In this document: one piece after another, positions 177 to 54,940 of the stretch | How the letters are laid out: each line of letters starts with the position of its first letter | Position numbering within the stretch: the stretch's first letter is position 1 | Virus record (IMG/VR): IMGVR_UViG_3300020452_000389 | Span: 1-54,940 of that record | Direction: 5' to 3' (one strand) | DNA: 54,940 nt | DNA from: a virus | Lineage: Duplodnaviria; Caudoviricetes | Program-made: the position numbers and the translations under genes | The notes under the pieces: generated by a model | Told to the model about the DNA's origin: nothing | What the model saw: the letters and a program-made list of their open reading frames with translations, nothing else | Databases searched by the model: none

Positions 177-1739
177 ATGTCAGACGCAATAGTCAAGAAC
201 CTAAGTTTTGGTAACGAAGCTAAGGATCAAATATTTAAAGGTATAGAAAAACTCACAAAAGCTGTTAGCTCCACTTTAGGGGCTAGCGGCAAGTGTGTAA
301 TAATGGAAGATGGAAAAGGTTATCCTATCATAACAAAAGATGGTGTAACAGTGGCTGATTCTATTATCTTACAAAATCCCATAGAAAATATGGGTGCAAC
401 TCTTTTAAAAGAAGCTGCAAGAAAAACAGTAAGAGAAGCTGGTGATGGTACTACCACAGCAACGGTATTAGCACATTCTATTTTAGAAGAAGCTTATAAT
501 GCACGCCCTGAAGATTCTATAAGAGGAATAAAAGAAGGTATAGAAAAAGTAACTAACAAAGTTATTAAATACTTAGAAAAAATATCAATACCAGTAACTG
601 GTAGTATGATTGATCAAATAGCAACTATATCTACTAACAACGATGAAAAGTTAGGTAAATTAATAGCTAACGCATTTAGAGAGGTTGGTGACACAGGTGT
701 GGTAACAATGGAGCCAACAGAAGGTGGTATTACAGAAATTGAAATTGTAGAAGGAGTTGAATACGGAAAAGGGTATGCTGATCCAAATTTTGTTACAAAT
801 AAAGAAAAAAATATAGTAGAACTAGAAAATCCTTTAGTTTTAATTATGGATTCTAAAATAGAATCAATAAGACAAGTTCAACCGGTACTTGAACATGTTA
901 TAAAAAATAATAAATCTTTATTGTTAGTTGGAGAAGTTCAAGCAGGAGTTTTATCTGCTTTGCTTATGAATAAAATGAAAGGAAATATAAAGATTAATGT
1001 TATAGATCCTCCAGTTTATGGATTAAGAAGAAAGGAAATATTAAATGATTTAGCTTTATTAACTAATTCTATAATAATAAATGAAGATTTAGGTGATGAT
1101 TTAAATGTTATTCAAGTTGATTATTTAGGTTCCTGTGTTAAAGCTACATCTACATCTGATCAAACTGTAATTCAAATTGAAGAAACTTCAGAAGAAGTAG
1201 AAGATATAATTAGCAAAATAAAACAAGATCTTAAGAAGAAAAACAAAGCTCATGTAGTTCATAGTTTAGAATTAAGATTAGCTAGATTATCTGCTAAAGT
1301 TGCAGTTGTTAAAATTGGTGCTAATTCAGCTATAGAATTAAAAGAAAAAACAGATAGAGTCGAAGACGCTATTTGTGCTACTAAAGCCGCTATAAAAGAG
1401 GGTATAGTTCCAGGGGGAGGAATTGCATTGCTTAACGCATCATATTCTATAAAACCTGAAAACACAGGTGAAGAAATATTGTTAAGAGCAATACAATCTC
1501 CATTTAAAACCATTCTTAGTAATGCTGGTATAAATCCAGATAAGCTAAACAGTAAGCAAAAAGTCGGAATAGGATTAGACGTAGTTACAGGAAATATGGT
1601 AAATATGGTTGATTCAGGAATTATCGATCCTTTACTAGTAACAAAAAGTGCATTAGTAAATGCGGCTTCTGTAGCTACTACAATATTATCTACTGATTGT
1701 GTAATTAATAATATGAGAATTGATGAAAGCAATAGGTAG
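177..1739 (+). CDS. groEL: Chaperonin GroEL (Cpn60)
   Basis: ITKDGVTVA, AGDGTTTATVLA, RVEDAICATKAA, GIVPGGG and GIIDP motifs; 520 aa; no C-terminal GGM tail. Confidence 0.98.
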   Translation: MSDAIVKNLSFGNEAKDQIFKGIEKLTKAVSSTLGASGKCVIMEDGKGYPIITKDGVTVADSIILQNPIENMGATLLKEAARKTVREAGDGTTTATVLAHSILEEAYNARPEDSIRGIKEGIEKVTNKVIKYLEKISIPVTGSMIDQIATISTNNDEKLGKLIANAFREVGDTGVVTMEPTEGGITEIEIVEGVEYGKGYADPNFVTNKEKNIVELENPLVLIMDSKIESIRQVQPVLEHVIKNNKSLLLVGEVQAGVLSALLMNKMKGNIKINVIDPPVYGLRRKEILNDLALLTNSIIINEDLGDDLNVIQVDYLGSCVKATSTSDQTVIQIEETSEEVEDIISKIKQDLKKKNKAHVVHSLELRLARLSAKVAVVKIGANSAIELKEKTDRVEDAICATKAAIKEGIVPGGGIALLNASYSIKPENTGEEILLRAIQSPFKTILSNAGINPDKLNSKQKVGIGLDVVTGNMVNMVDSGIIDPLLVTKSALVNAASVATTILSTDCVINNMRIDESNR

Positions 1740-1983: not shown

Positions 1984-2420
1984 AAAGGCTAGATGCATCA
2001 GACTTAAAAAATCTGAATTTGTTAAAACACTACCGTATAATACGCAAGTGGGCTTCCAAAAACAACAACCTTAGAGAAGCAGATCTAGAATTATTAATAT
2101 ATCTAGATTGTATAGATTTGTTTACTAAAAAAGATTTTGAATTAGGAGTTTACTCTTATAGCTGGGATAATAGACGATGGAGTAGATTGATTAAAAACGA
2201 CTGGATAAAAGTTTGGAGAACTAGAAATAGAACTACTCAAAAATATAATATTTATAAAGTATCTTTTAAAGGTAAACAACTTATAAATAGAATATATAAA
2301 ATAATGTTAAAAGAAGAAGAGCTTCCTACTAGCATTAGAAGAAATAAAATTATGAAAGGTAATTCATATATGGATAAAGTTATGATTACCTCTATTAAAA
2401 ACGTAAACAAGGATATATGA
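1980..2420 (+). CDS. Hypothetical protein, possible winged-helix DNA-binding protein
   Basis: 146-aa basic ORF; RLIKNDWI...NIYKVSFKGKQLI resembles a wHTH wing. Confidence 0.6.
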   Translation: MKRLDASDLKNLNLLKHYRIIRKWASKNNNLREADLELLIYLDCIDLFTKKDFELGVYSYSWDNRRWSRLIKNDWIKVWRTRNRTTQKYNIYKVSFKGKQLINRIYKIMLKEEELPTSIRRNKIMKGNSYMDKVMITSIKNVNKDI

Positions 2421-4159: not shown

Positions 4160-4450
4160 ATGGCAAATTACATTAAAATTAAAGCAGCAGATATAAATGT
4201 TGCTAATCAAACTTCAGACGTACTAATTGGAAACGTTGATTCTGTTTACCAAGGACTAGCAAACGGGGGTGGAGATGCTAACAAATTCACAGTTTATGCT
4301 GATGGAAAAAGCTATTTATTTACAGTTACTGCAAAAGGTAAAGAGTGGGCTGATCAATTTATTTCAGCTGTTACGGCTAACCCAGGTGGTATTATGTCAA
4401 TCGTACAAAATGACACAGGCGTAAAAGTAACCGCTATAGTTGTAGCATAA
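4160..4450 (+). CDS. Hypothetical protein, possibly structural
   Basis: 96-aa A/G/V/T-rich ORF. Confidence 0.75.
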   Translation: MANYIKIKAADINVANQTSDVLIGNVDSVYQGLANGGGDANKFTVYADGKSYLFTVTAKGKEWADQFISAVTANPGGIMSIVQNDTGVKVTAIVVA

Positions 4451-4452
4451 TT

Positions 4453-4608
4453 ATGCAATCTCAAGGATTAGGCGATAGTATAGCTAAATTCACGGAAAAA
4501 ACAGGGATTAAGACCGTTGTAGAAAAAGTCTCTAACGGTCTTAATATTCCTTGTGGTTGTAAAAGTCGTCAAACATGGTTTAACGAAAAGTTTCCTTATA
4601 AAAAATAA
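4453..4608 (+). CDS. Small phage protein with GLGD...CGC motif (not in the ORF track)
   Basis: MQSQGLGDSIAKFTEKTGIKTVVEKVSNGLNIPCGCKSRQTWFNEKFPYKK*; fills the gap exactly. Confidence 0.8.
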   Translation: MQSQGLGDSIAKFTEKTGIKTVVEKVSNGLNIPCGCKSRQTWFNEKFPYKK

Positions 4609-27115: not shown

Positions 27116-30100
27116 ATGGAAGTATATATAGTAGACGGTAGAGAACTTACTTTAGAACAGTTCGAAGCTTTAGCAAAAGAAGCTGGTTTGAGTACCGAAA
27201 AATATAAAGCTTTATACAACGTAGAAGTAAAGCAAGACCCCAATGCTCTGGATGCGGCTGCGGGAGAGGACAAAGCATCCTGGGAATCACAATTGGCAAA
27301 TTTACGATCGGAATACAGAAAAACTTGGGGAGATAAATTTTGGATGCCAGAAGATACTCCTGACGTTACTTCAGGAAGAGGTGAAATGCGAAAGCGTGAA
27401 GTAAAAAGAATTGAATTTACTAAAGCCGAGAAAGAGTTAGTTAATAAAATTAAATCTTACAATGAAAATCCAAATAATATAGATTTTGCTGATTGGCAAA
27501 CTGTTATTAATCAAGGTGAAGATGCTATTAAGTCATATTTAGCTCAGGAATTTCCTTTTTTAAGAGCAAAAGATGGCACTATAGGTAACGCTATAAAAGT
27601 ACAATTAGCTAACGGAGAATTTAAAGAAATTGATTTAAAACCTATATTTAGTGGTCAAAAAAAACAAGCTATAGAGGTTATAAAAGAAATAAACGCAACT
27701 AAAGAAGAATATAATAATAGAGAAATTATTCAAGCTAATATGAATAATTTAGCGGGTAGTATAGAAAGATCTGGTAATGTTAACGCTGTTAACGCTTTGT
27801 TAAAAGACAATACTCCTTATCAACTTGAACAAATAACAGAAAAATACGATGAATTTGCAGCATCTGATATTAAATCATACAATGTATATAAAAATGGGGA
27901 GCTTATAAGCACTCAATTACCTATAACTAAGGTTGATGATTTTTTAAGGGAAAATATTACAAAGGTAGAGTTTGATAATATGGTTACAACTTCTGTAAAA
28001 GCTATAGATGAAATGGCTGCTTTACAAAGAGCTTATATAGAAAGAGAATCTCAAGTTATAGAAGAAAAACCAGAAACTAAAGTAAAGTATTATAAAAAAA
28101 ATTATCAAAACGATGTATTGGATTTGGTAAAATCTTTAGGGGATTTTAGCCAAGAAGAATTAGACGAAATAGAAGCATACATAACAAGAACTCAAAGACA
28201 ACAATTTCCAACTGGAACATTGACGTCTAGAGGATATATTCCTAATACAAATACAGGTTTATCACCTGATGAAATAATAAGACAACTTACATCTTTAGAA
28301 GGTTTATCTGCGGATATTAAAAACAAGTTGGTACAACGAGGTTTTATTAATGAAATGAAAGAAAAAGTTTCTAATGGTATAAGCAACATTGCATTACAAG
28401 AAGCTAAAGAAGGTTCTAAAACTTTATTACAAAACGCTCTTACTGATATAGATAAAAACTATTTATTAGATTTAGCAAATTATCATAATGATAATACGTT
28501 AAATAAAAGAAAAAAAATAAATTTAGAAAATTTAGGTGGTCTTGAAAATGATGACACTAAAGAATTACTTACAATAGCAGGATCAATTAAAGGTACTGAT
28601 CTTGTATTGAGAAAAAGAAATTTTGAAAAAGATAATAAAAACGCAGTAAAAGCTTGGGAGGATTTTTATAATCCAAAACTTGAAACAATACAAAAAGAAT
28701 TTGCAAATTTACTTAATCAACTACCACCAACAGTTAGTGTAGAAAGTAGTGAAACACCCTCAGGACCTTTATTTAAAATAGATAGTACAAAAGATTTAGG
28801 TGATACTGAAAACAAAAGAGTAAATAATTTAATAAATAAAATTACGGCTTTACAAAGTACATATCATAACTTAGTATTTGACGCTAATAAATCTAAAGAA
28901 AAAATTATAAACAATTATAGCGCTTTTAATGCTCAATTGGCAGAGTATACTAAAAGCGATTATATAATAGACGAAGCTAATAAAGAATATGGTTTATTTA
29001 ATTTAGTTACTAAAGATGTTAATGATGCTTTTTCTCAATTGTTTTTAACTGTACCTACTTTGCTTAATTCAGATTGGGCTATTAGAAGAGAGAAACAGTT
29101 AAAAGATAAAAACAATTATTATAAAGAAATGGTTGATCCAGAGTTTAGTTTAGAATATATAACTAGAACTTTAGGTCAACAGTCAGCTAATATTACTATG
29201 GCTATAGGAATAGCTGGGTTAGGTTCAATACCTGCTTTAGGTTTAAGTGATATTGCTATTAGTAATGCAATAGGGGTTAGCTTTGGTTTAAGCTCTGGTA
29301 CTCAAACTTTTAGAGATTTAAGTATTCAAAGAGATGCTGCTGAAGAAGCGAAGCTACTAGCAGTCAGATATAAAGAAGCATTTGATGCTGGTGAAATAAG
29401 TGAGTACAACTACACTATAGCTATGAGAGATATAAATACTACTATAGCTATGGGTAAGTTAGATGATAATCAAATATTAAACGCATCTATTGCTAATGGT
29501 ATAATAGAGGGAACACTTACTAAATACATAGGTACAGCTTCAAACAGTATAGCTTTAGTTAAAAACTTTACTCAAGTTGATCGAGCTACTATTGCAAAAA
29601 CTTTATTCCAAGGTAATCCTACAAAATTTTATGAATTTATAGGTAAACCTTTAGTCACTAGAACAGGATTAGAGGTTGTAGAAGAAGAACTTATATTTGG
29701 TGGTCAACAGTTTGTTACTGAAGCTGGTATTTTAGGTAGAGATATAGATAGAGAAAAGTTTTTAAAAGGAGCTAATGATACTTTTTGGGCCACAGTGGTT
29801 ACCGCGGGTATGTCACAATCTACCGGTATAGTTTACAGCGGTATGAACGCTTATGGTATAACAAAAAAATATGAAAAAGTTATAAACAAAAGCAAGCTTG
29901 TTTTAAACGATATATCAGCATCTATACAAAACCTTGCGAAAGGAGATGAAGGGACAAAAAATAGTTTACTGCTTGGTATGTTTGAGGAATTAAAATCTAT
30001 GGGATTAGCTATTGATCAAAATTCTATAGATCTTTTAAACTTAAGTAAAGAAAATAAAAACGGAGAGTCTGATTTAAAAACATTAATAGGAACACAATTA

Positions 30101-33100
30101 GTTAAGCAAGATTATTTAAGAAGTTTAGGTATTGAAGGTGGAACAAAAGCAGAACAAGAATCAGCTTTAGAAGCGTACAAAGCTACGCTAACTGAAGGTC
30201 AATTAAAAAATTTAAATGATACATTAAATGCTTTTGATACTCAAATAAATAATATAAAAGAAAAAGCTAGTAAAGCTTCTAACTACGATGTAGCAAAAGA
30301 AGCGTTAGGTAATATTTATACTATTTATGATGAATCGCTTAAAAATGATACAGAATATAAAGCTGCTAACACACAAGGTAAACTTGTAAAAATAATAAAC
30401 GCTTTAAGAGAGGACATGCGTCTACAGAATATTGAAAACGCTAAATCAAATCCTTCCATTGTTGAACAAGTAGAGAATATGCCGTTTGCTCCATTTACAA
30501 AAGAAGGAGCTGAACAACAAAGAGATAAAATTTATGAGAAGCTTGGTAATGAAATGGCTTTACAAGAAAGTAGAGGATTTAGTACTCAATTAAATGTAAA
30601 TAGACAGGCTAGTTTATTAATAGGTGGTGATTTAAAATCAGTTAATGTTGTAAGTTATAAAAATGATGAAGAGCTTAAAGATAGATTAGAAGCTGTTGGC
30701 TTAAAGAAAGGTAGTCCGGATTTTATGGAAGCTTTTAATAAGCTAAAACAAGGAAAAGTTTTTGGGCTTGTGTTTGGTAAAACTATTATAACACAAAATG
30801 AAGATGCTGTAAAAGCAGATCTTGAAGCTGGAGTTATTAGAGCTGGTACAGTTGTGTTACATGAACTTACACATATTATTAAAGATGCTCAAATGAAATC
30901 TCCTGAATCAAAAAAGAAATATTTTGATAATCTATTTTTAGCAGCATCGACAAGTAATAATTTAGCGTTAAAAAGTATACATGATCAGACCGTGAATATG
31001 ATGAATAGATTATACGGTGATAAAGAAGGTGAAAATAAATTAAAATGGCAAGATGAATATACTATATTCTTGCAAGAGCAATTGTATGCTTATGAAGATT
31101 TTGTTCAAATAGAAACAGATGATAGCTTTCTTACAAAAATATTTAATAGAACAAACCCAGCTAATTTAAATACACCTGAAAAAGCTTTAAATTATTTAGC
31201 AGCTAGCAATGCTGCTTTTAGAAGAGGTAAAATTTCTAGATCTACAAAAAAAGCTGTAGAACGTTTTGAAGGAACCAACATCAAAGAATCTGGTAGAGAT
31301 ATAAATGATTTAGCTAGAGATTATAAAACTTTACCTGTTGATCAAAGAGCTAGTTTTTTATTAGACACTGATTTTTATAGACAATACCTTAACACTTCTT
31401 TAGCGGCAATGGGCTTTAATATTAACAAAGGTGATATAGCTACTGAACAAGCAGAAGGTTTTGCTGTTGATGCTTTTGATAGAGTAACAAAAAGTTATAA
31501 ACCAGAAGATGGTTCGTTTACTAACTGGATATATTCAACTGTGGGTAGAGAAGGTAGAGCTAAAATAGGAGAGGAAATAGAAAGAAAGAAAAAGTTAGTA
31601 CGTCAAAGTCAAGCTCAAGAACAAACTAGATTAGTTGCTAAAGAAACCGCAGAAGACGCTGTAAGCTTAGAAGAAAGAAAAAAAGCAGAAGGTACAGGTA
31701 GAACACTAGTAGATCCTAGAAAATTACCAGGAGTACCTTCAAACATTGACAATATAGTAGAAATAAATAAAGACGATGTTGTAATAAATCCTGAATCAAG
31801 ATCTTATACAACAGATTTTAGAAGTATATCAGATCAATATGGTCCTAAGGTAGCAGGTGAAATTTATGGTATAAACCCTAGTAAACTTAAAAAAGGTGCT
31901 GATCTTACATATGGTCAGAATAAAGTAGTTGATGGTAGAAAAGTAAGTTCTGAAGCTGAAAAAATACAAAGCGAGTTTACCAATGCTCAAAACGTTAAGA
32001 AGTTTATTTCTTTATTTCCTGAATTTAATATAAGTACACCTACAGCTGTAACTACACAACAAGGTCAAGAAACTAAAGTTGATAAAGATGTGCAGGGTAG
32101 ATCATTAGGTATTGCCCCTAGTGTACAAAACTATTTTTATGAAAATTACGTTGACCCTAGATCTTTAAATAAAGAAACTAAAAAAGATGCTATAACAAAT
32201 CCTAAAGGAAGATCTAAAGGTACTACTAGTCAAACGCAAGTAAAAAGATTAAAGCCTGAATTTAGAGGCACCATATCTAATGAGACTATTAAAAAGCTAC
32301 AGAATGATTTAGGTATAACTGCAAAAGGTGAATTTAACGTTCCACCAAAAGGTAAAGCAAGAACTGAGTTTGGTAGACTACTTATAGGTTTAGCAAACTT
32401 AAAAGGTGCTATTGTAGCTAATACTGTTGTAGATCAAAAGATACAATCACTTATTAAGAAAGGTGAAATTAAATCTGTTAGAACTCCAGAACAAATCACA
32501 GCAAGCACAAGAGCTGGTAGAAGTAAAATACAGTATAGTGAAAAAGCTCCTTCTGAGTATGTTGTTTCTTTAATGCAAAAACTAAGGGTGTTAAATAAAG
32601 AAAGCGGTACTAAAAAAGCTACACGAGAAGGTGAATTTTTAACTAGAGGTATACAGCAAACAAGACTAAGTGACGGTACAGAAAAAACTATAATAGATAG
32701 AGATAAATATTTATCTGATGAAGTTGCTGCGTTTAAAGGAGAAATGTTTTTAGAAGGTATGACAAGGGTGATAAATGATTTCTTAAAAACATATCCTGAA
32801 TTTAGAAACTTTTTTAAACAGGCTACTGTGTTTGGAATGGATAGATCTGCGTTTGGTGTTGCACCGCTTTATAATAAAAATATTTCTACTACTAAAAGTA
32901 AACAAGCTAATGTTAACAGAGAGTCAATGACTTCTAATAAAAAGTTAACAAACGCTTATGTAAATGAAATTGAAAACAATACAAAAAGTTATGTAGCTAA
33001 ACAAAAAGATAAAATACAAGTGCTATATGATTTTGCTAAAGCAGTTGAATCTTATTTAGAACAAGAGACTGAAGTAGAAATAGATGGTAAAATTAAAAAA

Positions 33101-36100
33101 GTAAAAGCTAATAAAAAAAATGCATGGGTATTTGATGAAATTAGAGCTGAAGCAACTAACTCTCAACAATCTCCATTTAGAACATTATTCCCTGTTTATT
33201 TAGTTGAAGTAGATTTTCAAGGTAAACCACTCAGAAATGTTAAAGGTACAGAAGAGCATTCAACTCCTCAAAACCAAATAGGAACGTTGTTAATTCAAGC
33301 TGCAATTGATCAGAAAGTAGATGAAGTTTTTCCTATTGTAAAAGCTTTAGCTATGCAAGGTTGGTTATCAGATGATGTAGATAATAAGCTTAACGAAGAT
33401 TATAGTAAATCTATGCCTTACAATTTGCTTAAAACAGGTATAGAGCTTTACAACAAAGGTGAATTAAAATTACCTGATGGTACTTTAGCTGCTATAAGAA
33501 TGAGTGAATCAGATGTTGATCTTAGTTTTCAAATGTATATTCCAACAGGTCAAACTTTATCTCAAATATTTTTTGGCACTGAAGATGTTAAACTAGTAGA
33601 TCAAAAACAATTAATGAGAGACTTGTTTAGCGGAAAAAGAACTCAAGCAGAAGTAAAACAAGAAGCTAAAAGATTAGTTAAAATACAACAAAAAGTAGAT
33701 GAAACTTTTAAACCTGAAGCACCTGTAGCTATAGATAGAAACAATACGGCTGATAAAGCTATGGCTGATGCTAGAAACAGTGTTAAATATAAAGAGTCTA
33801 GAAAAGGTATTAGTGTGTTTGATTTTGATGATACACTAGCTCAATCAAATAGTAAAGTTCTTTACACTATGCCTGATGGAACAACAGGTTCTCTTACGGC
33901 AGGTGAATTTGCATTAGAAGCATCGGGGTTAACTGAGTTAGGTGCTGAGTTTGATTTCAGTGAATTTAACGAAGTTAAAGAAGGTAGAAAAGGTCCATTA
34001 GCAGATCTTGCTTTAAGACGTCAAGAAAAATTTGGCAGCCAAGATATATTTGTATTAACAGCTAGGCCTCAAGCGTCAGCTATAAATATTAAACAATTTT
34101 TAGATGAAATTGGTTTAAATATACCTTTAGCAAATATAACTGGTTTAGCTGATGGAAGACCAGAAGCTAAAGCTAATTGGATGATTGAGAAATATGCTGA
34201 TGGTTATAATGATTTTTATTTTGCAGATGATGCTTTTAAAAATGTAGAAGCAGTTCAAAATGTATTTGATGTATTAGATGTTAAATCTAAAGTGCAACAA
34301 GCAAGGGTTAAGTTTAGCGAAAAACTAGATAAAGATTTTAACGACATGATCGAAAGAAACATGGGCGTTCCATCTGAAGCAACATACTCAGATATTGTTG
34401 CAAGAAGAATGGGTAAAAATCAAAAAAGATTTGCATTTTTTATTCCACCTTCAGCAGATGACTTTAGAGGTTTAACAATGTACACATTTGCTGGTAAAGG
34501 GAAGCAAGGTGAAGCTGATCAAGAGTTTTTTAATAAAGCATTAATAAAACCTTATATGGCTGGTGTTAACGCTATGAACTTGTCTAAAAATAGAGTTAAA
34601 AACGCTTATAAAGTTTTACAACAAACTAGTCCTGAAGTTAGAAAAAAATTAAACAAAAAAATTGGTGGTACTAAATACACTCATGATGCAGCTATAAGAA
34701 TTTATTTATGGAGTAAAGATGGAACTAAAATACCAGGTTTATCTAAACGAGACCAGGAACAAATAGTAAAATTAGTAGAAGCTGATACAGATTTAGTAGC
34801 TTATGCTGAAGGAGTAAAACTAATTACTAAACAAGATGTTTATCTTCCACCATCTGAATTTTGGGATGGTACTACTATAATAGGAGATTTATCTAAATTA
34901 ACTAAAGATGTTAAAAGAGAAGAGTATTTAAAAGATTTTTCGCGTAACGTTGATATTATATTTAGTCCTAAAAATTTAAATAAAGTAGAAGCTATTTATG
35001 GTTTTAGAGTAAGAGAAGCTTTAGAAAATATTATATACCGAATGAAAACAGGTAGTAATAGAAAGGCTGGTGCTGATAGAATTGTAACAGCATGGAATGA
35101 TTGGACTAACAGATCTGTTGGTGCTATAATGTTCTTTAATAGAAGATCAGCATTGTTACAGATGTTATCTGCTGGTAACTTTGTTAATTGGTCAGATAAT
35201 AATCCATTAAAAGCAGCGGCTGCATTTGCCAATCAACCTCAATACTGGAAAGATGTAGTTTATCTTTTTAATTCTCCTAAATTAAAAGCTAGAAGATCTG
35301 GTTTAGAAGGAGACATTAATGAAGCAGAAATAGCACAAGCTTCTAAAAAAGGTGGTATGGAAGGTGTGTTATCTTATTTATTAAAAATAGGTTTTACACC
35401 TACTCAAATAGCAGATAGTATAGCTATATCTACAGGTGGTGCATCGTTTTATAGAAATAGAATTAACACATATAAAAAACAAGGATATACCACTGAAGAC
35501 GCAGAGAAAAAAGCTTTTGAGGATTTTTCAGCTATATCAGATGAGACACAACAGTCAGCAGATCCAATGTTAATATCTATGCAACAAGCAGGTACTATGG
35601 GTAGATTAGTATTAGCATTTCAAAACACGCCAATGCAGTATACTCGTTTAATGAAAAAAGCTGGTCAAGATATTATAAATGGAAGAGGAGATTTTAAAAC
35701 TAATTTTTCTAAAATATTATATTACGGGTTTATACAAAACTTAATTTTCTCTACATTACAAAATGCTATGTTTGCTTTATTACCTGGATTTGAAGATGAA
35801 GAAGAACCTGATTTTAAAACAGATAAAGAAAAGGAAGAGTGGTTAGCTAAACAAGATAACAAAATGGACAATAAAACAACTAGAGTAGTTAACAACATGT
35901 TAGATACTTTACTAAGAGGATCTGGTTTAGCTGGAGCTGTTGTTGCTACAACTAAAAATGTTATCATGGAATATAACGATCGTCAAGATATGACTATTTT
36001 AGAAAAATCTAGAAACAACGCTGACTTATTAATAGCTTTATCTAGTATATCACCTCCAATAAGTTCTAAGTTAAGAAAAATAAATAATGCTTTAAATCTT

Positions 36101-36586
36101 GAAGACTTTGAAAGAGATATAATAGCAGAAAGAGGTTTTAGTGTTACTATTGATGGTAAGTTTCAGTTAAGCCCACAATACCAAGTTGTAGGTGAGGTTG
36201 CTTCTGGTTTATTTAATTTACCTTTAGATAGGGTATTTAACGAGGTTAATTCTATTACAGAAGCTTTAGATGAAAGGAATAGTGCTTACCAAAGAATAGC
36301 ACTAGCGTTAGGTTGGAAAACGTGGGATGTAGGAGCTAAGATTGAAGAGCATGAATTAATAAAAACCCTAGCAAAAGAGAAAAGAAAAAAGGAAGGAATA
36401 GAAAAAGGAAAGCAAACTAGAAAAACTAATAAAGAATTAGAAAAAGAGCACGAAAGACTTAGAAGAAGTATTATATTTAAACTACCTAAACCCATAAAAG
36501 ATAGTTTAATAAAAAAAGAAAGAGAAGACAAAAAGATAACTGCAATTTATAAGTTAAATCAATTGAAAGCTAAATACTTAGAATAA
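27116..36586 (+). CDS. Giant internal virion (polyvalent) protein, 3156 aa
   Basis: HELTH zincin motif, sigma-region-2-like segment, complete HAD motif set, helical C-terminal region. Confidence 0.8.
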   Translation: MEVYIVDGRELTLEQFEALAKEAGLSTEKYKALYNVEVKQDPNALDAAAGEDKASWESQLANLRSEYRKTWGDKFWMPEDTPDVTSGRGEMRKREVKRIEFTKAEKELVNKIKSYNENPNNIDFADWQTVINQGEDAIKSYLAQEFPFLRAKDGTIGNAIKVQLANGEFKEIDLKPIFSGQKKQAIEVIKEINATKEEYNNREIIQANMNNLAGSIERSGNVNAVNALLKDNTPYQLEQITEKYDEFAASDIKSYNVYKNGELISTQLPITKVDDFLRENITKVEFDNMVTTSVKAIDEMAALQRAYIERESQVIEEKPETKVKYYKKNYQNDVLDLVKSLGDFSQEELDEIEAYITRTQRQQFPTGTLTSRGYIPNTNTGLSPDEIIRQLTSLEGLSADIKNKLVQRGFINEMKEKVSNGISNIALQEAKEGSKTLLQNALTDIDKNYLLDLANYHNDNTLNKRKKINLENLGGLENDDTKELLTIAGSIKGTDLVLRKRNFEKDNKNAVKAWEDFYNPKLETIQKEFANLLNQLPPTVSVESSETPSGPLFKIDSTKDLGDTENKRVNNLINKITALQSTYHNLVFDANKSKEKIINNYSAFNAQLAEYTKSDYIIDEANKEYGLFNLVTKDVNDAFSQLFLTVPTLLNSDWAIRREKQLKDKNNYYKEMVDPEFSLEYITRTLGQQSANITMAIGIAGLGSIPALGLSDIAISNAIGVSFGLSSGTQTFRDLSIQRDAAEEAKLLAVRYKEAFDAGEISEYNYTIAMRDINTTIAMGKLDDNQILNASIANGIIEGTLTKYIGTASNSIALVKNFTQVDRATIAKTLFQGNPTKFYEFIGKPLVTRTGLEVVEEELIFGGQQFVTEAGILGRDIDREKFLKGANDTFWATVVTAGMSQSTGIVYSGMNAYGITKKYEKVINKSKLVLNDISASIQNLAKGDEGTKNSLLLGMFEELKSMGLAIDQNSIDLLNLSKENKNGESDLKTLIGTQLVKQDYLRSLGIEGGTKAEQESALEAYKATLTEGQLKNLNDTLNAFDTQINNIKEKASKASNYDVAKEALGNIYTIYDESLKNDTEYKAANTQGKLVKIINALREDMRLQNIENAKSNPSIVEQVENMPFAPFTKEGAEQQRDKIYEKLGNEMALQESRGFSTQLNVNRQASLLIGGDLKSVNVVSYKNDEELKDRLEAVGLKKGSPDFMEAFNKLKQGKVFGLVFGKTIITQNEDAVKADLEAGVIRAGTVVLHELTHIIKDAQMKSPESKKKYFDNLFLAASTSNNLALKSIHDQTVNMMNRLYGDKEGENKLKWQDEYTIFLQEQLYAYEDFVQIETDDSFLTKIFNRTNPANLNTPEKALNYLAASNAAFRRGKISRSTKKAVERFEGTNIKESGRDINDLARDYKTLPVDQRASFLLDTDFYRQYLNTSLAAMGFNINKGDIATEQAEGFAVDAFDRVTKSYKPEDGSFTNWIYSTVGREGRAKIGEEIERKKKLVRQSQAQEQTRLVAKETAEDAVSLEERKKAEGTGRTLVDPRKLPGVPSNIDNIVEINKDDVVINPESRSYTTDFRSISDQYGPKVAGEIYGINPSKLKKGADLTYGQNKVVDGRKVSSEAEKIQSEFTNAQNVKKFISLFPEFNISTPTAVTTQQGQETKVDKDVQGRSLGIAPSVQNYFYENYVDPRSLNKETKKDAITNPKGRSKGTTSQTQVKRLKPEFRGTISNETIKKLQNDLGITAKGEFNVPPKGKARTEFGRLLIGLANLKGAIVANTVVDQKIQSLIKKGEIKSVRTPEQITASTRAGRSKIQYSEKAPSEYVVSLMQKLRVLNKESGTKKATREGEFLTRGIQQTRLSDGTEKTIIDRDKYLSDEVAAFKGEMFLEGMTRVINDFLKTYPEFRNFFKQATVFGMDRSAFGVAPLYNKNISTTKSKQANVNRESMTSNKKLTNAYVNEIENNTKSYVAKQKDKIQVLYDFAKAVESYLEQETEVEIDGKIKKVKANKKNAWVFDEIRAEATNSQQSPFRTLFPVYLVEVDFQGKPLRNVKGTEEHSTPQNQIGTLLIQAAIDQKVDEVFPIVKALAMQGWLSDDVDNKLNEDYSKSMPYNLLKTGIELYNKGELKLPDGTLAAIRMSESDVDLSFQMYIPTGQTLSQIFFGTEDVKLVDQKQLMRDLFSGKRTQAEVKQEAKRLVKIQQKVDETFKPEAPVAIDRNNTADKAMADARNSVKYKESRKGISVFDFDDTLAQSNSKVLYTMPDGTTGSLTAGEFALEASGLTELGAEFDFSEFNEVKEGRKGPLADLALRRQEKFGSQDIFVLTARPQASAINIKQFLDEIGLNIPLANITGLADGRPEAKANWMIEKYADGYNDFYFADDAFKNVEAVQNVFDVLDVKSKVQQARVKFSEKLDKDFNDMIERNMGVPSEATYSDIVARRMGKNQKRFAFFIPPSADDFRGLTMYTFAGKGKQGEADQEFFNKALIKPYMAGVNAMNLSKNRVKNAYKVLQQTSPEVRKKLNKKIGGTKYTHDAAIRIYLWSKDGTKIPGLSKRDQEQIVKLVEADTDLVAYAEGVKLITKQDVYLPPSEFWDGTTIIGDLSKLTKDVKREEYLKDFSRNVDIIFSPKNLNKVEAIYGFRVREALENIIYRMKTGSNRKAGADRIVTAWNDWTNRSVGAIMFFNRRSALLQMLSAGNFVNWSDNNPLKAAAAFANQPQYWKDVVYLFNSPKLKARRSGLEGDINEAEIAQASKKGGMEGVLSYLLKIGFTPTQIADSIAISTGGASFYRNRINTYKKQGYTTEDAEKKAFEDFSAISDETQQSADPMLISMQQAGTMGRLVLAFQNTPMQYTRLMKKAGQDIINGRGDFKTNFSKILYYGFIQNLIFSTLQNAMFALLPGFEDEEEPDFKTDKEKEEWLAKQDNKMDNKTTRVVNNMLDTLLRGSGLAGAVVATTKNVIMEYNDRQDMTILEKSRNNADLLIALSSISPPISSKLRKINNALNLEDFERDIIAERGFSVTIDGKFQLSPQYQVVGEVASGLFNLPLDRVFNEVNSITEALDERNSAYQRIALALGWKTWDVGAKIEEHELIKTLAKEKRKKEGIEKGKQTRKTNKELEKEHERLRRSIIFKLPKPIKDSLIKKEREDKKITAIYKLNQLKAKYLE

Positions 36587-52967: not shown

Positions 52968-53426
52968 TTATTCTTCGTATATATAACCGTTACTTTCTAA
53001 TTCATCAACTTTGTCATCATGTAGCCCATCATAAACATCGTGATACCATTCTGCTAATTCACAGTCTAAATCATCTTCAATTTCATCCCATATATGTTCA
53101 GCAACCCAAACATCTTGGTTGTTAACTAAAGTATCTAGTATTCTTTCAGCAAACTCATTACCATCAGCGTAGTAATATATATCACTAGCAAAATCTCTAA
53201 CGCCGTCATGTTCATGTGTACATGCATATACATCATAAGTATCTGCAGTTGTTTCAGTATATACCAGTAAGCCTTCAGCACCTTGTGCCCAGCTACTCGT
53301 GTTATCTAAGTTACCACCGTAGTTAGCGGTAATATATTCAAGAATCCAGTTCATATCTGGTTCTTGCATTATGCCGTCAGCTTCTAATTTTTCTGCGACG
53401 TCATCATAATTAATTATTTCACTCAT
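52968..53426 (-). CDS. Highly acidic early protein (paralog of 53997-54449)
   Basis: Start reassigned to MSEIINY because the longer ORF runs through the tRNA; very D/E-rich. Confidence 0.8.
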   Translation of the reverse strand: MSEIINYDDVAEKLEADGIMQEPDMNWILEYITANYGGNLDNTSSWAQGAEGLLVYTETTADTYDVYACTHEHDGVRDFASDIYYYADGNEFAERILDTLVNNQDVWVAEHIWDEIEDDLDCELAEWYHDVYDGLHDDKVDELESNGYIYEE

Positions 53427-53446
53427 TGTATTTAATTTAAAATTAG

Positions 53447-53519
53447 AGCGAAAAGTGGGACTCGAACCCACAACATTCACCTTGGAAGGGTGATGCTCTA
53501 CCAATTGAGCTATTTTCGC
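53447..53519 (-). tRNA. tRNA-Gly (anticodon UCC)
   Basis: GCGAAAA/TTTTCGC acceptor stem, GCTC/GAGC D stem, TCACC-CTTCCAA-GGTGA anticodon arm, GTGGG-TTCGAGT-CCCAC T arm, U73; CCA not encoded. Confidence 0.95.
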
Positions 53520-53522
53520 ATT

Positions 53523-53617
53523 AGAGGAGATGCCCCGATTTCCGGTTGGATTCAAAAGGGTTTGTACTCAGGACCTTTCTACTGTTACCGGTTTTCGGGA
53601 ACGACTTACACTCCTCT
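53523..53617 (-). ncRNA. Unnamed 95-nt structured RNA abutting the tRNA-Gly 5' end
   Basis: Five nested helices; G-U pairs only on the - strand; AGUA/GAA internal loop. Confidence 0.7.
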
Positions 53618-53874
53618 TAGTCTAATAAGACCATATAAGCTTCAGAGTTGTTTGTTCTGAACCAACTTAAAGCTTTATCAAAGTCATTAATCATTTTTTG
53701 GTTATATTTTCCTGTTTCAAAAATAGATTGACACCCAATTATGAAATCATAAATACTTAATTCTTCTGCGGTCAACTCGTGGCTTTCGCCAGAAAAAGGA
53801 TTAGTTACTTCTCCACCGCTTGTGTATAAGCTTCCTTTAAACCATTTAGGTAATTTTTGTTTAGATTTTAACAT
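53617..53874 (-). CDS. Hypothetical phage protein
   Basis: VTNPFSG...ELSIYD...WFRTNNSEAYMVLLD. Confidence 0.75.
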   Translation of the reverse strand: MLKSKQKLPKWFKGSLYTSGGEVTNPFSGESHELTAEELSIYDFIIGCQSIFETGKYNQKMINDFDKALSWFRTNNSEAYMVLLD

Positions 53875-54007
53875 TTTTATTTATTATGAGTGGAGACTCA
53901 TCTTTATTTGTTTTAATATAATAGACCGAATCTCCTTCTTCTATTATAATATTTTTGTTTTTAAACCTTTTAGGGTAATTTTTTAACACATATTCTTTAA
54001 TCTTCAT
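53861..54007 (-). CDS. Small hypothetical protein (48 aa)
   Basis: MKIKEYVLKNYPKRF...KDESPLIINKNVKI*. Confidence 0.55.
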   Translation of the reverse strand: MKIKEYVLKNYPKRFKNKNIIIEEGDSVYYIKTNKDESPLIINKNVKI

Positions 54008-54454: not shown

Positions 54455-54691
54455 TTACTTTATTAAAAATTTACTACCGCCATACATTATATCACTAGCG
54501 GATATTTCATGAGTATATAAACTTGCATATGTCATTAAAGAGCTAATTTCACTTATTGTTAACTCATGCCACATTGTGCTACTCATTAATTTATATTTTA
54601 ATCTTTTAGCACTATCATATTGTCTAGCGCTAGCTTGCAACTCTGATTTAATAGGTTCAACAAGTCTTTGGTAAATTGATTTTAATTTCAT
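54455..54691 (-). CDS. Hypothetical protein
   Basis: 78-aa ORF. Confidence 0.7.
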   Translation of the reverse strand: MKLKSIYQRLVEPIKSELQASARQYDSAKRLKYKLMSSTMWHELTISEISSLMTYASLYTHEISASDIMYGGSKFLIK

Positions 54692-54733
54692 ATTATTATT
54701 ATCTTATTATTATTGTATTTTGTTTGTAATTAG

Positions 54734-54811
54734 TGGAAGTGGGCGGAGTCGAACCGCCGTTTACTAGACGACCACATATTTGTGGGTATTAGTACTTACC
54801 TTATCACTCCC
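54734..54811 (-). ncRNA. Minimal tmRNA-like RNA (tRNA-like domain only, Ala identity)
   Basis: GGGAGTG/CACTTCC-A with G3-U70, stemless D loop, 3-nt AAC linker, GGCGG-TTCGACT-CCGCC T arm, no anticodon loop. Confidence 0.75.
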
Positions 54812-54829
54812 ATAAGATAGCAGTCGCGG

Positions 54830-54936
54830 ACTGGTAGTTAACTAGTATTGTCATTTATCCGCTCTTTCTGTTTTGCTAAAGTTATAGCTGCTTATATAAG
54901 CTTTTTCCGCCTTACCCTTTAACTAACGTGACCAGT
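54830..54936 (-). ncRNA. Probable structured RNA, possibly truncated at the window edge
   Basis: ACTGG/CCAGT and TAGTTAA/TTAACTA close a domain containing two small hairpins. Confidence 0.4.
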
Positions 54937-54940
54937 AGGC

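Follow-up and report, generated by a model that had tools for sequence, protein, structure and literature searches.

The window analysed here, a stretch of 54,940 nucleotides (nt) comprising positions 1 to 54,940 of the IMG/VR virus record IMGVR_UViG_3300020452_000389 (Duplodnaviria; Caudoviricetes), carries on its minus strand a 95-nt hairpin located between an open reading frame (ORF) of 85 amino acids (aa) and a tRNA-Gly gene. There is good support for regarding this hairpin as a genuine non-coding structured RNA, tied to a phage cluster of tRNA genes and genes resembling the tRNA-like domain (TLD) of transfer-messenger RNA (tmRNA). Its central part almost certainly represents a real and conserved RNA module that is homologous to the arm of TLD-type RNAs found in other viral and metagenomic loci. 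The hairpin goes beyond what chance would produce, because its homologues keep the helices through compensatory changes. The features concerned are listed below, where R1 is a covariance model of the relatives, A2 and A3 are alignments, and numbers preceded by L designate loci of the relatives.

53523..53617, minus strand: 95-nt hairpin RNA element, consisting of the loop-E-like arm module and a plain terminal helix, with no T arm (fold, R1 score)
53611..53617, minus strand: 5′ strand AGAGGAG of the terminal helix, pairing with CUCCUCU at 53523..53529
53608..53610 (UGU) and 53531..53533 (GCA), minus strand: helix extension of 3 base pairs (bp) after a 1-nt bulge (RNAfold)
53600..53607, minus strand: unpaired 8-nt 5′ linker AAGUCGUU, with the same letters in the window, L113 and L120
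53534..53599, minus strand: conserved arm module (alignments A2 and A3, pair counts)
53595..53599 with 53534..53538, minus strand: helix H1, CCCGA/UCGGG (RNAfold, alignments)
Between H1 and H2, minus strand: AAA/AAA internal loop, 3x3 (RNAfold)
53587..53591 with 53542..53546, minus strand: helix H2, CCGGU/ACCGG (RNAfold, alignments)
53580..53586 (AACAGUA) opposite 53547..53553 (GAAUCCA), minus strand: loop-E-like 7 x 7 internal loop (RNAfold, alignments)
53574..53579 with 53554..53559, minus strand: helix H3, GAAAGG/CCUUUU (RNAfold, alignments)
53560..53573, minus strand: apical loop of H3, 14 nt (RNAfold)
53520..53522, minus strand: spacer AAU, 3 nt, between hairpin and tRNA (sequence)
53446..53519, minus strand: tRNA-Gly(UCC) (ARAGORN; Rfam tRNA, 76.5 bits)
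53617..53874, minus strand: 85-aa ORF of unknown function, stop codon TAA at 53619..53617, no Pfam or PHROG family
54734..54811, minus strand: TLD-only tmRNA-like RNA without the module (fold, partial tmRNA match, TLD signature)

The minimum-energy structure obtained with RNAfold for the minus strand has an energy of −31.7 kcal/mol and contains five nested helices, and both the sequence and the fold had been given correctly in a preliminary description of this element made from the letters of the DNA. All 26 predicted helix pairs are intact. The hairpin begins on the final base of the TAA stop codon of the 85-aa ORF and its 3′ end is followed by the AAU spacer, so that it fills the gap between the stop codon and the tRNA except for these 3 nt, as had been described. 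The minus strand reached a z-score of −3.38, with 1 of 200 shuffles as stable, whereas the opposite strand had equal energy but a z-score of −2.10, with 8 of 200 shuffles as stable. Two G.U pairs, U10.G85 and G39.U64, are possible on the minus strand only; they had been noted before and, together with the z-scores and the covariation presented below, they uphold the proposal of a discrete, strand-specific structured RNA element. The GC content is 0.46–0.49 across the hairpin and 0.20–0.39 nearby. In the internal loop, AGUA abuts the distal helix on the 5′ side and GAA on the 3′ side, which is the placement already proposed, and this loop proved to be the most conserved part of the module. By its sequence signature it would correspond to a bulged-G (sarcin-ricin/loop E) motif.

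Relatives of the hairpin were gathered by several routes. The 85-aa protein is encoded by 18 viral contigs (42–63% identity), and no hairpin was observed after that gene in any of these 18 loci; the slot holds a tRNA-Met in L005 and an odd tRNA in L008 (3246..3318, with an 8-nt anticodon loop and the ARAGORN anticodon ‘ataa’). As a side observation in L008, ARAGORN reported a ‘tmRNA’ at 4276..4591 with an odd 33-residue tag, probably a false call. A pattern that combined both halves of the internal loop matched one viral contig, L020, in the same slot after the 85-aa gene. There, the internal loop and H2 are kept, H3 is rebuilt as ACUCAA/UUGAGU, and the module sits inside a 111-nt tRNA-like RNA with an acceptor stem, an 11-nt unpaired linker, a long arm, a T arm and a discriminator A. 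Further relatives came from 80 loci anchored on the downstream 161-aa gene and from looser patterns applied to viral contigs (14 stretches, by inspection 10 members and 4 chance matches) and to metagenomes (80 of 112 matching stretches examined, with 56 of the 80 loci matching R1).

R1 was built from 12 sequences, including the window hairpin, which scores 60.6 bits (E = 5e-15) as a seed and thus belongs to the family by construction. Across 100 protein-anchored sources (575 kb), R1 gave 14 matches at E ≤ 1, 12 of them strong (56.8–71.3 bits) and all 14 on the strand of the neighbouring genes. In total, 73 viral or metagenomic loci in 98 sources matched at E ≤ 0.001, representing at least 47 distinct modules in at least 58 distinct contexts. 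Members that were not seeds scored 52–76 bits (for instance L120, 60.1; L126, 57.9; L139, 66.0), and four loci (L067, L072, L083 and L025) were matched by R1 and by no pattern, yet present the same core. This core consists of H1, H2, an invariant internal loop, AACAGUA(R) ... (Y)GAAUMYA, and a hypervariable hairpin H3, and it is present in 46 of the 47 distinct modules, in letters that the retrieval patterns fixed. The H3 inserts comprise 33 distinct versions of 10–75 nt, H3 being reduced in L072 to a 3-bp stem capped by a GAAA loop, and the same H3 occurs in L054 and L103 and likewise in L110 and L010, as module cassettes shuffled between scaffolds. The 3x3 loop between H1 and H2 is swapped for pairs in many members, and L036 has neither the internal loop nor H3. 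The CUGAGUA apex, earlier regarded as a T-loop-like feature of the RNA, occurs in just 8 of the 46 core-bearing modules and is therefore a subfamily trait within the hypervariable H3 and its loop. The family seems to be absent from the cellular genomes searched: the core pattern gave 3 matches in one genome each of 185,579 species, all coding-like and without flanking helices, and the best R1 score in 141 Bacteroidia genomes was 22.6 bits, compared with 52–78 bits for members.

The homologues provided the covariation that the preliminary description had proposed to look for. Among 47 distinct rows, 94.2% of cells were observed to pair, against 82.6% in shuffles, and 89 cells were changed on both sides, against 25.8 in shuffles. 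The covariation score was equalled in none of 500 shuffles, and sliding the partner by 1–3 columns lowered pairing to 11–42%. At the base of H3, 4 of 4 counted pairs covary; in H1, covariation is seen at two pairs and G.U is frequent, occupying 31 of the 47 rows at one pair; H2 is nearly unvarying, with three of its pairs fixed by the retrieval patterns. The pair next to the loop motif is A-U in 21 cases, G-C in 12 and G.U in 10. Such frequent wobble pairs at fixed positions fit an RNA of minus-strand sequence.

The terminal helix gives a comparison at closer range. The window subfamily comprises the window itself (identical to L148), L113 (identical to L184) and L120, in which the linker, H1, H2, the loop and the GCAU junction are almost letter-identical and the closing helices differ (AGAGGAG/CUCCUCU, GAUUU/AAAUC and AGAG/CUCU); in the alignment of these three, both partners are changed in 6 of the 7 terminal pairs. 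Six further closing helices, unrelated in sequence, were seen; other T-arm-less members close with GGUAAUGG/CCAUUACC (L126), GGCAGG/CCUGCC (L139) or ACCCAG/CUGGGU (L103). Over the core, the copies in the window and in L113 share about 93% identity, yet they occupy different genomic slots with unrelated flanks; the unit has therefore moved and its closing helix has been re-formed.

In 37 of the 58 contexts, the module forms the long arm of a tRNA-like RNA of about 75–160 nt. G3.U70 and A73 are present in all 37, the 7-bp acceptor stem is fully paired in 36, and CCA is encoded in none. A T arm and a 5′ linker of 9–11 nt are found, with no D stem and no coding part. The remaining acceptor pairs differ among members (GGGCGYG, GGGAGUG, GGGGGUG), a change on one side being compensated on the other. 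The commonest slot of these RNAs in sister phages is after the 85-aa ORF, and many upstream flanks end in ...LLD followed by a stop. For comparison with the class of the probable host, tmRNAs from 54 of 61 Bacteroidia genomes were considered and the ends of 30 were read. Shared with these ends are the GGG start, the ...GGU(A/U)UUGAC linker and the ...AC-G-T-arm-acceptor-A-C ending. The combination of G3.U70, A73, a T arm, Bacteroidia-like ends and no D stem argues that the module-bearing sister RNAs are tmRNA TLDs without a message, an assignment made at the level of sequence. L020 has a partial tmRNA match in cmscan of 12.7 bits, below the RF00023 gathering score of 47.

The phage in the window has its own TLD-only RNA 1.1 kb from the hairpin, at 54811..54734, and this one is without the module. 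Its acceptor stem GGGAGUG/CACUUCC includes G3.U70, followed by A73; it has a plain arm, no D stem and the T arm GGCGG UUCGACU CCGCC, with the T-arm motif at 54755..54745. The fold reaches −26.4 kcal/mol (z-score −3.07), and cmscan aligns it with the 3′ part of tmRNA at 19.8 bits (E = 2.5e-6), again below the gathering score of 47. The same scaffold recurs in L150, L124 and L180 with the module in its arm. Furthermore, the TLD-only RNAs of L120 (188..89, minus strand) and L103 (9371..9476, plus strand) have arms unrelated to the module and to each other. The TLD scaffold thus carries several kinds of arm.

Several observations concern the surroundings of these TLD RNAs. In the window, the contig end truncates the stretch upstream of the TLD RNA (54812..54940, minus strand). 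This stretch, which may represent a further structured leader, is similar to those preceding the TLD RNAs of L025 and L036, and the letters shared by the three are ...UACUGGUC...GGAUAAA..AAUACUAGUUA..ACC.GUC...ACUGCU..CUUAU, ahead of the GGG start. In L025, a minimal RNA of about 50 nt lies about 190 nt beyond the TLD RNA and is composed of a 7-bp acceptor-like stem (AGAACAU/AUGUUCU) and a T arm only. A second motif pair, GGGU(U)AAAACA.GAA.GACGG ... GAAAGC.UGGG with a hairpin and ACCC, was observed after TLD or tRNA-like genes (L036 after 870, L025 after the second tRNA-like gene, L059 at about 1565..1697, and others), with 23 and 17 regular-expression matches for its two parts across all loci and 0 in the window.

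The remaining form is that of the window. In 18 of the 58 contexts, the window included, the T arm is missing and a plain helix closes the module; the letters of this helix are completely different from locus to locus, and its pairing is kept. The window hairpin is colinear with the TLD-type RNAs over its 5′ 85 nt and then lacks about 17 nt of T arm; its linker AAGUCGUU is collinear with the AAGGUAUUG linker of the TLD RNAs, at the position of the D-loop analogue. It has A3-U70 in place of G3.U70, and beyond its 3′ strand come the AAU spacer and the tRNA. No T arm was found in the space separating H1 from the terminal helix, and the T-arm motifs nearby belong to the tRNA-Gly and to the separate TLD RNA only. 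With no T arm and with A3-U70, the window hairpin cannot be an alanine acceptor. It is almost certainly the free-standing form of the TLD-type arm module.

The T-arm-less hairpins are linked to tRNAs. A tRNA or a T-arm-bearing gene comes next on the same strand in 17 of the 18 contexts. Ten have a downstream tRNA called by ARAGORN, namely Gly (window, L173), Met (L126, L059, L063, L067) or Asp (L139, L164, L177, L121), and 6 of these tRNAs start at most 27 nt from the module end; seven others have a T-arm motif of a TLD or tRNA-like gene within 300 nt. L113 is the only context with neither. A split arrangement, in which a module hairpin accompanies a separate module-less TLD, was identified in the window, L120 and L103, and in the latter two the hairpin precedes the TLD. 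The two RNAs of L120 and the single fused RNA of L072 lie between homologous flanks. The module is therefore found reused in TLD scaffolds, in plain hairpins before tRNAs and in larger non-coding regions before tRNA-Met (L059, L063, L067).

Two groups of loci deserve a separate description. In L059 (1164..1697), L063 (about 1300..1698) and L067, a non-coding region of about 400–530 nt between a small Cys-rich ORF and the tRNA-Met contains the module and a flanking TLD-like 5′ half, with no Rfam match in L059 1100..1800; the region is possibly a larger composite RNA. In L010 (about 2250..2345), L192, L119 and L073, the module hairpin is followed by a tRNA-like RNA with the acceptor AACUAGR/UCUAGUU and a T arm, without a cloverleaf or an ARAGORN call, whose third acceptor pair is C-G and which is thus not alanine-like.

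Searches against known families were consistent with a new one. At the gathering score of Rfam 15, tRNAs alone passed in the whole window and only tRNAs in L059, L063, L010, L046 and L054, and at E ≤ 10 no family, tmRNA included, covered the hairpin within 53300..53800, so that the Rfam check proposed earlier leaves the novelty in place. Rfam was also run at E ≤ 10 on L020, L059 1100..1800 and window 54650..54940, with the results given above. Neither ARAGORN nor Rfam RF00005 recognised a tRNA cloverleaf in the hairpin. An intron-bearing tRNA was considered and rejected: ARAGORN with introns at an 80% threshold gave implausible models for the window and L020, the window call being on the opposite strand. 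The hairpin is not an intrinsic terminator, as no terminator-like site was found and its 3′ neighbour is AAUGCG, with no U run; the promoter and terminator scan was uninformative, the consensus used not being that of Bacteroidota. Searches of deposited phage records (INPHARED) with blastn gave tRNA matches only for 53300..53900 and no match for the L054 TLD RNA. Since none of its members matches Rfam 15, INPHARED phage records or the searched cellular genomes, the hairpin family appears to be undescribed. In the portions of the literature covered, no TLD-only RNA with this arm is described for marine or flavobacterial phages, and the tmRNA tables in the supplements of PMC9004378 and PMC8776804 could bear on this point.

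The closest known systems differ from the family in definable ways. Stable structured RNAs beside phage tRNA genes include the T4 species 1 and 2 RNAs, which are non-tRNA RNAs within the tRNA cluster, and the large GOLLD and ROOL RNAs; their function is unknown and they are presumably matured by tRNA-processing enzymes. GOLLD and ROOL, both in Rfam, gave no match here, and they measure hundreds of nucleotides against 95 for the hairpin. The ribosomal sarcin-ricin/loop E motif shares with the window hairpin the signature of AGUA on the 5′ side and GAA on the 3′ side of a covarying closing pair. Here, however, three extra invariant unpaired bases are present on one strand and four on the other, and the module continues into a long variable helix where the ribosomal motif continues into a tetraloop. 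As for tmRNA, passages of Hudson, Lau and Williams (2014, PMC4131195) describe a TLD-only tmRNA in mycobacteriophage DS6A, the one earlier mention of this kind of RNA, and report that a molecule like it strongly inhibits tmRNA, whether chargeable or not, perhaps by titrating SmpB. The sister RNAs with the loop-E-like arm resemble that published description, with which they were compared rather than with the DS6A sequence, in having G3.U70, A73 and a T arm and no D stem or coding part. The window holds one such RNA (54811..54734), and its hairpin is colinear with the module-bearing ones and differs by the absent T arm, by A3-U70 and by reaching no tmRNA score. The loop-E-like arm itself was not seen in the 30 Bacteroidia tmRNA ends, nor by R1 in the 141 genomes.

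Four metatranscriptome runs of one study contain contigs that hold parts of the window, in libraries that may contain DNA. These contigs run from the 85-aa ORF into the first 23–34 nt of the hairpin, ending at 53584–53595, and in two of them (X7 and X10) the sequence extends for at least 31 letters to either side of the ORF/hairpin boundary; 53458..53583 is uncovered in this single study. The only pieces on the tRNA show 3 mismatches at high depth and therefore derive from other organisms. A model of how the element might work starts from a polycistronic transcript, in which the hairpin would be made together with early or replication genes of the minus strand, co-transcription being assumed. 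Cleavage by RNase P at the 5′ end of the tRNA-Gly would then define the 3′ end of the hairpin, leaving a 3′ AAU tail. This part of the preliminary description is reasonable, and the tRNA linkage of the T-arm-less contexts makes it probable that RNase P sets the end, although the cleavage has been deduced from position. The invariant internal loop and H2 would form a predicted binding site for a trans-acting factor, which could be a component of host translation or ribosome rescue or a phage protein, and the hairpin would do in trans what the arm does in cis within TLD-type RNAs.

We lean slightly towards this reading when the identity of the hairpin and the trans-factor mechanism are taken together. 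For the single proposition that the hairpin acts by binding a factor in trans, the arguments seem to us evenly balanced, and it is doubtful that such a factor belongs to trans-translation (the tmRNA pathway of ribosome rescue) or to the ribosome; the ribosome-rescue link of the partner is a guess, made only because of the company that the module keeps. Several points weigh against the proposed role. The hairpin is devoid of every TLD feature recognised by alanyl-tRNA synthetase (AlaRS) and, presumably, by SmpB and EF-Tu, the arm homology is the one observation that would connect it with trans-translation, and no SmpB gene was found in the window. TLD scaffolds with other arms (54811..54734, L120, L103, L036) suggest that the arm may be unrelated cargo. 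The TLD 3′ signature was not found in contigs L113, L010, L059, L063 and L067 (54–100% complete), and the split arrangement is therefore not general. A spacer of 3 nt is short for the leader contacts of RNase P, and cleavage could be slow. On the side of the data, most members were retrieved by patterns fixing core letters, so that the invariance of H2 and the loop is partly built in; alignment A3 was fitted to the R1 model, and the pair counts ignore phylogeny.

Other explanations of the same data were considered. The hairpin could be an end structure acting in cis, either a stable cap left on the mRNA 3′ end after RNase P cleavage or an insulator between ORF and tRNA, with no partner in trans. 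Its extent, beginning at the stop codon and stopping 3 nt short of the tRNA, would suit such a role, as would the position of 17 of the 18 T-arm-less copies before a tRNA or tRNA-like gene and the continuation of the RNA-library contigs from the ORF into the hairpin (with the same reservation about DNA). A generic cap, however, needs no invariant 7 + 7 nt loop beside an invariant H2 while the other helices drift; within TLD RNAs the module is not at an mRNA end, and L113 has the module with no tRNA after it. We consider this explanation unlikely. Intact pairing in all 26 helix pairs also speaks against a decaying copy of a TLD-type gene that has lost its T arm and G3.U70 and has no function of its own, as do the closing helices rebuilt with other letters in L113, L120, L126, L139 and L103, the occurrence of the T-arm-less form in 18 distinct contexts and several subfamilies, and the high identity of the window and L113 copies despite their move to different slots. 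Such a relic would explain the colinearity with TLD RNAs save for the deletion of about 17 nt, the A3-U70 pair and the presence of another, intact TLD RNA in the phage, and we regard it as improbable. It is very improbable that the hairpin is a small ribozyme (a new, self-cleaving one) or a ligand-sensing aptamer serving to process or regulate the tRNA/TLD transcripts. A conserved internal loop between variable helices, a variable peripheral hairpin, a location at processing junctions and the absence of matches to known families all agree with such a role, but neither a conserved context for a cleavage site nor a second conserved loop was seen, and the 3x3 loop gives way to pairs in many members.

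The function suggested in the preliminary description, a decoy for ribotoxins that mimics the sarcin-ricin loop or an antitoxin-like RNA, found little in its favour beyond the AGUA/GAA placement against a helix and the sarcin-ricin-like topology of the L072 H3, with its 3-bp stem and GAAA tetraloop. The tetraloop attacked by ribotoxins is GAGA; no loop of this type lies next to the motif, and with a distal hairpin of 10–75 nt in 33 versions such a target is not a feature of the family. The marks of a ToxI-like type III antitoxin were likewise missing, since there are no tandem repeats at 53523..53617, the hairpin is present in one copy in the record (about 85% complete), and, of the 8 neighbouring ORFs scanned, 6 match no PHROG or Pfam family and the other two encode a DNA ligase and a DNA-binding protein, so that no recognisable toxin stands next to it. 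This role is extremely unlikely. Just as little credit is given to a palindrome acting at the DNA level, as a recombination or replication site. Equal folding energy on both strands and the shuffling of cassettes between scaffolds (the H3 shared by L054 and L103 and by L110 and L010) could be read in that way, but the common G.U and U.G pairs at fixed positions would turn into A-C mismatches in the opposite strand, the minus strand has the better z-score, and all 14 protein-anchored matches follow the strand of the neighbouring genes.

A wider and speculative proposal can also be made, which we hold to be unlikely as a whole: marine flavobacterial-type phages may carry a hitherto undescribed two-part RNA toolkit against host translation quality control. 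One part would be a TLD mimic, that is, an alanine-accepting tmRNA mimic without a message, and the other a loop-E aptamer arm for SmpB, a ribosomal site or a rescue or defence nuclease. The parts could be fused, or split as in the window, with RNase P freeing the hairpin from the tRNA precursor. The tRNA genes of phages have come to be viewed as a means of countering host defences that target tRNAs, whereas very little is understood about phage tmRNAs. The family described here, with at least 58 contexts from many marine samples, joins a tmRNA-like alanine acceptor to a strictly conserved non-canonical loop and deploys the same loop alone ahead of ordinary tRNAs. It offers a testable entry to phage interference with ribosome rescue and to the function of TLD-only tmRNAs, and the compact size of the RNA (52–95 nt) suits binding and structural studies.

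Finally, two observations describe the phage itself. The primase/helicase encoded in the window shares 42% identity with its counterpart in Cellulophaga phage phi10:1, its next matches being in phages of other Flavobacteriia, which makes a marine representative of this class the probable host. In addition, a single ORF of 3156 aa extends over 27116..36586 (plus strand) within the structural gene block.

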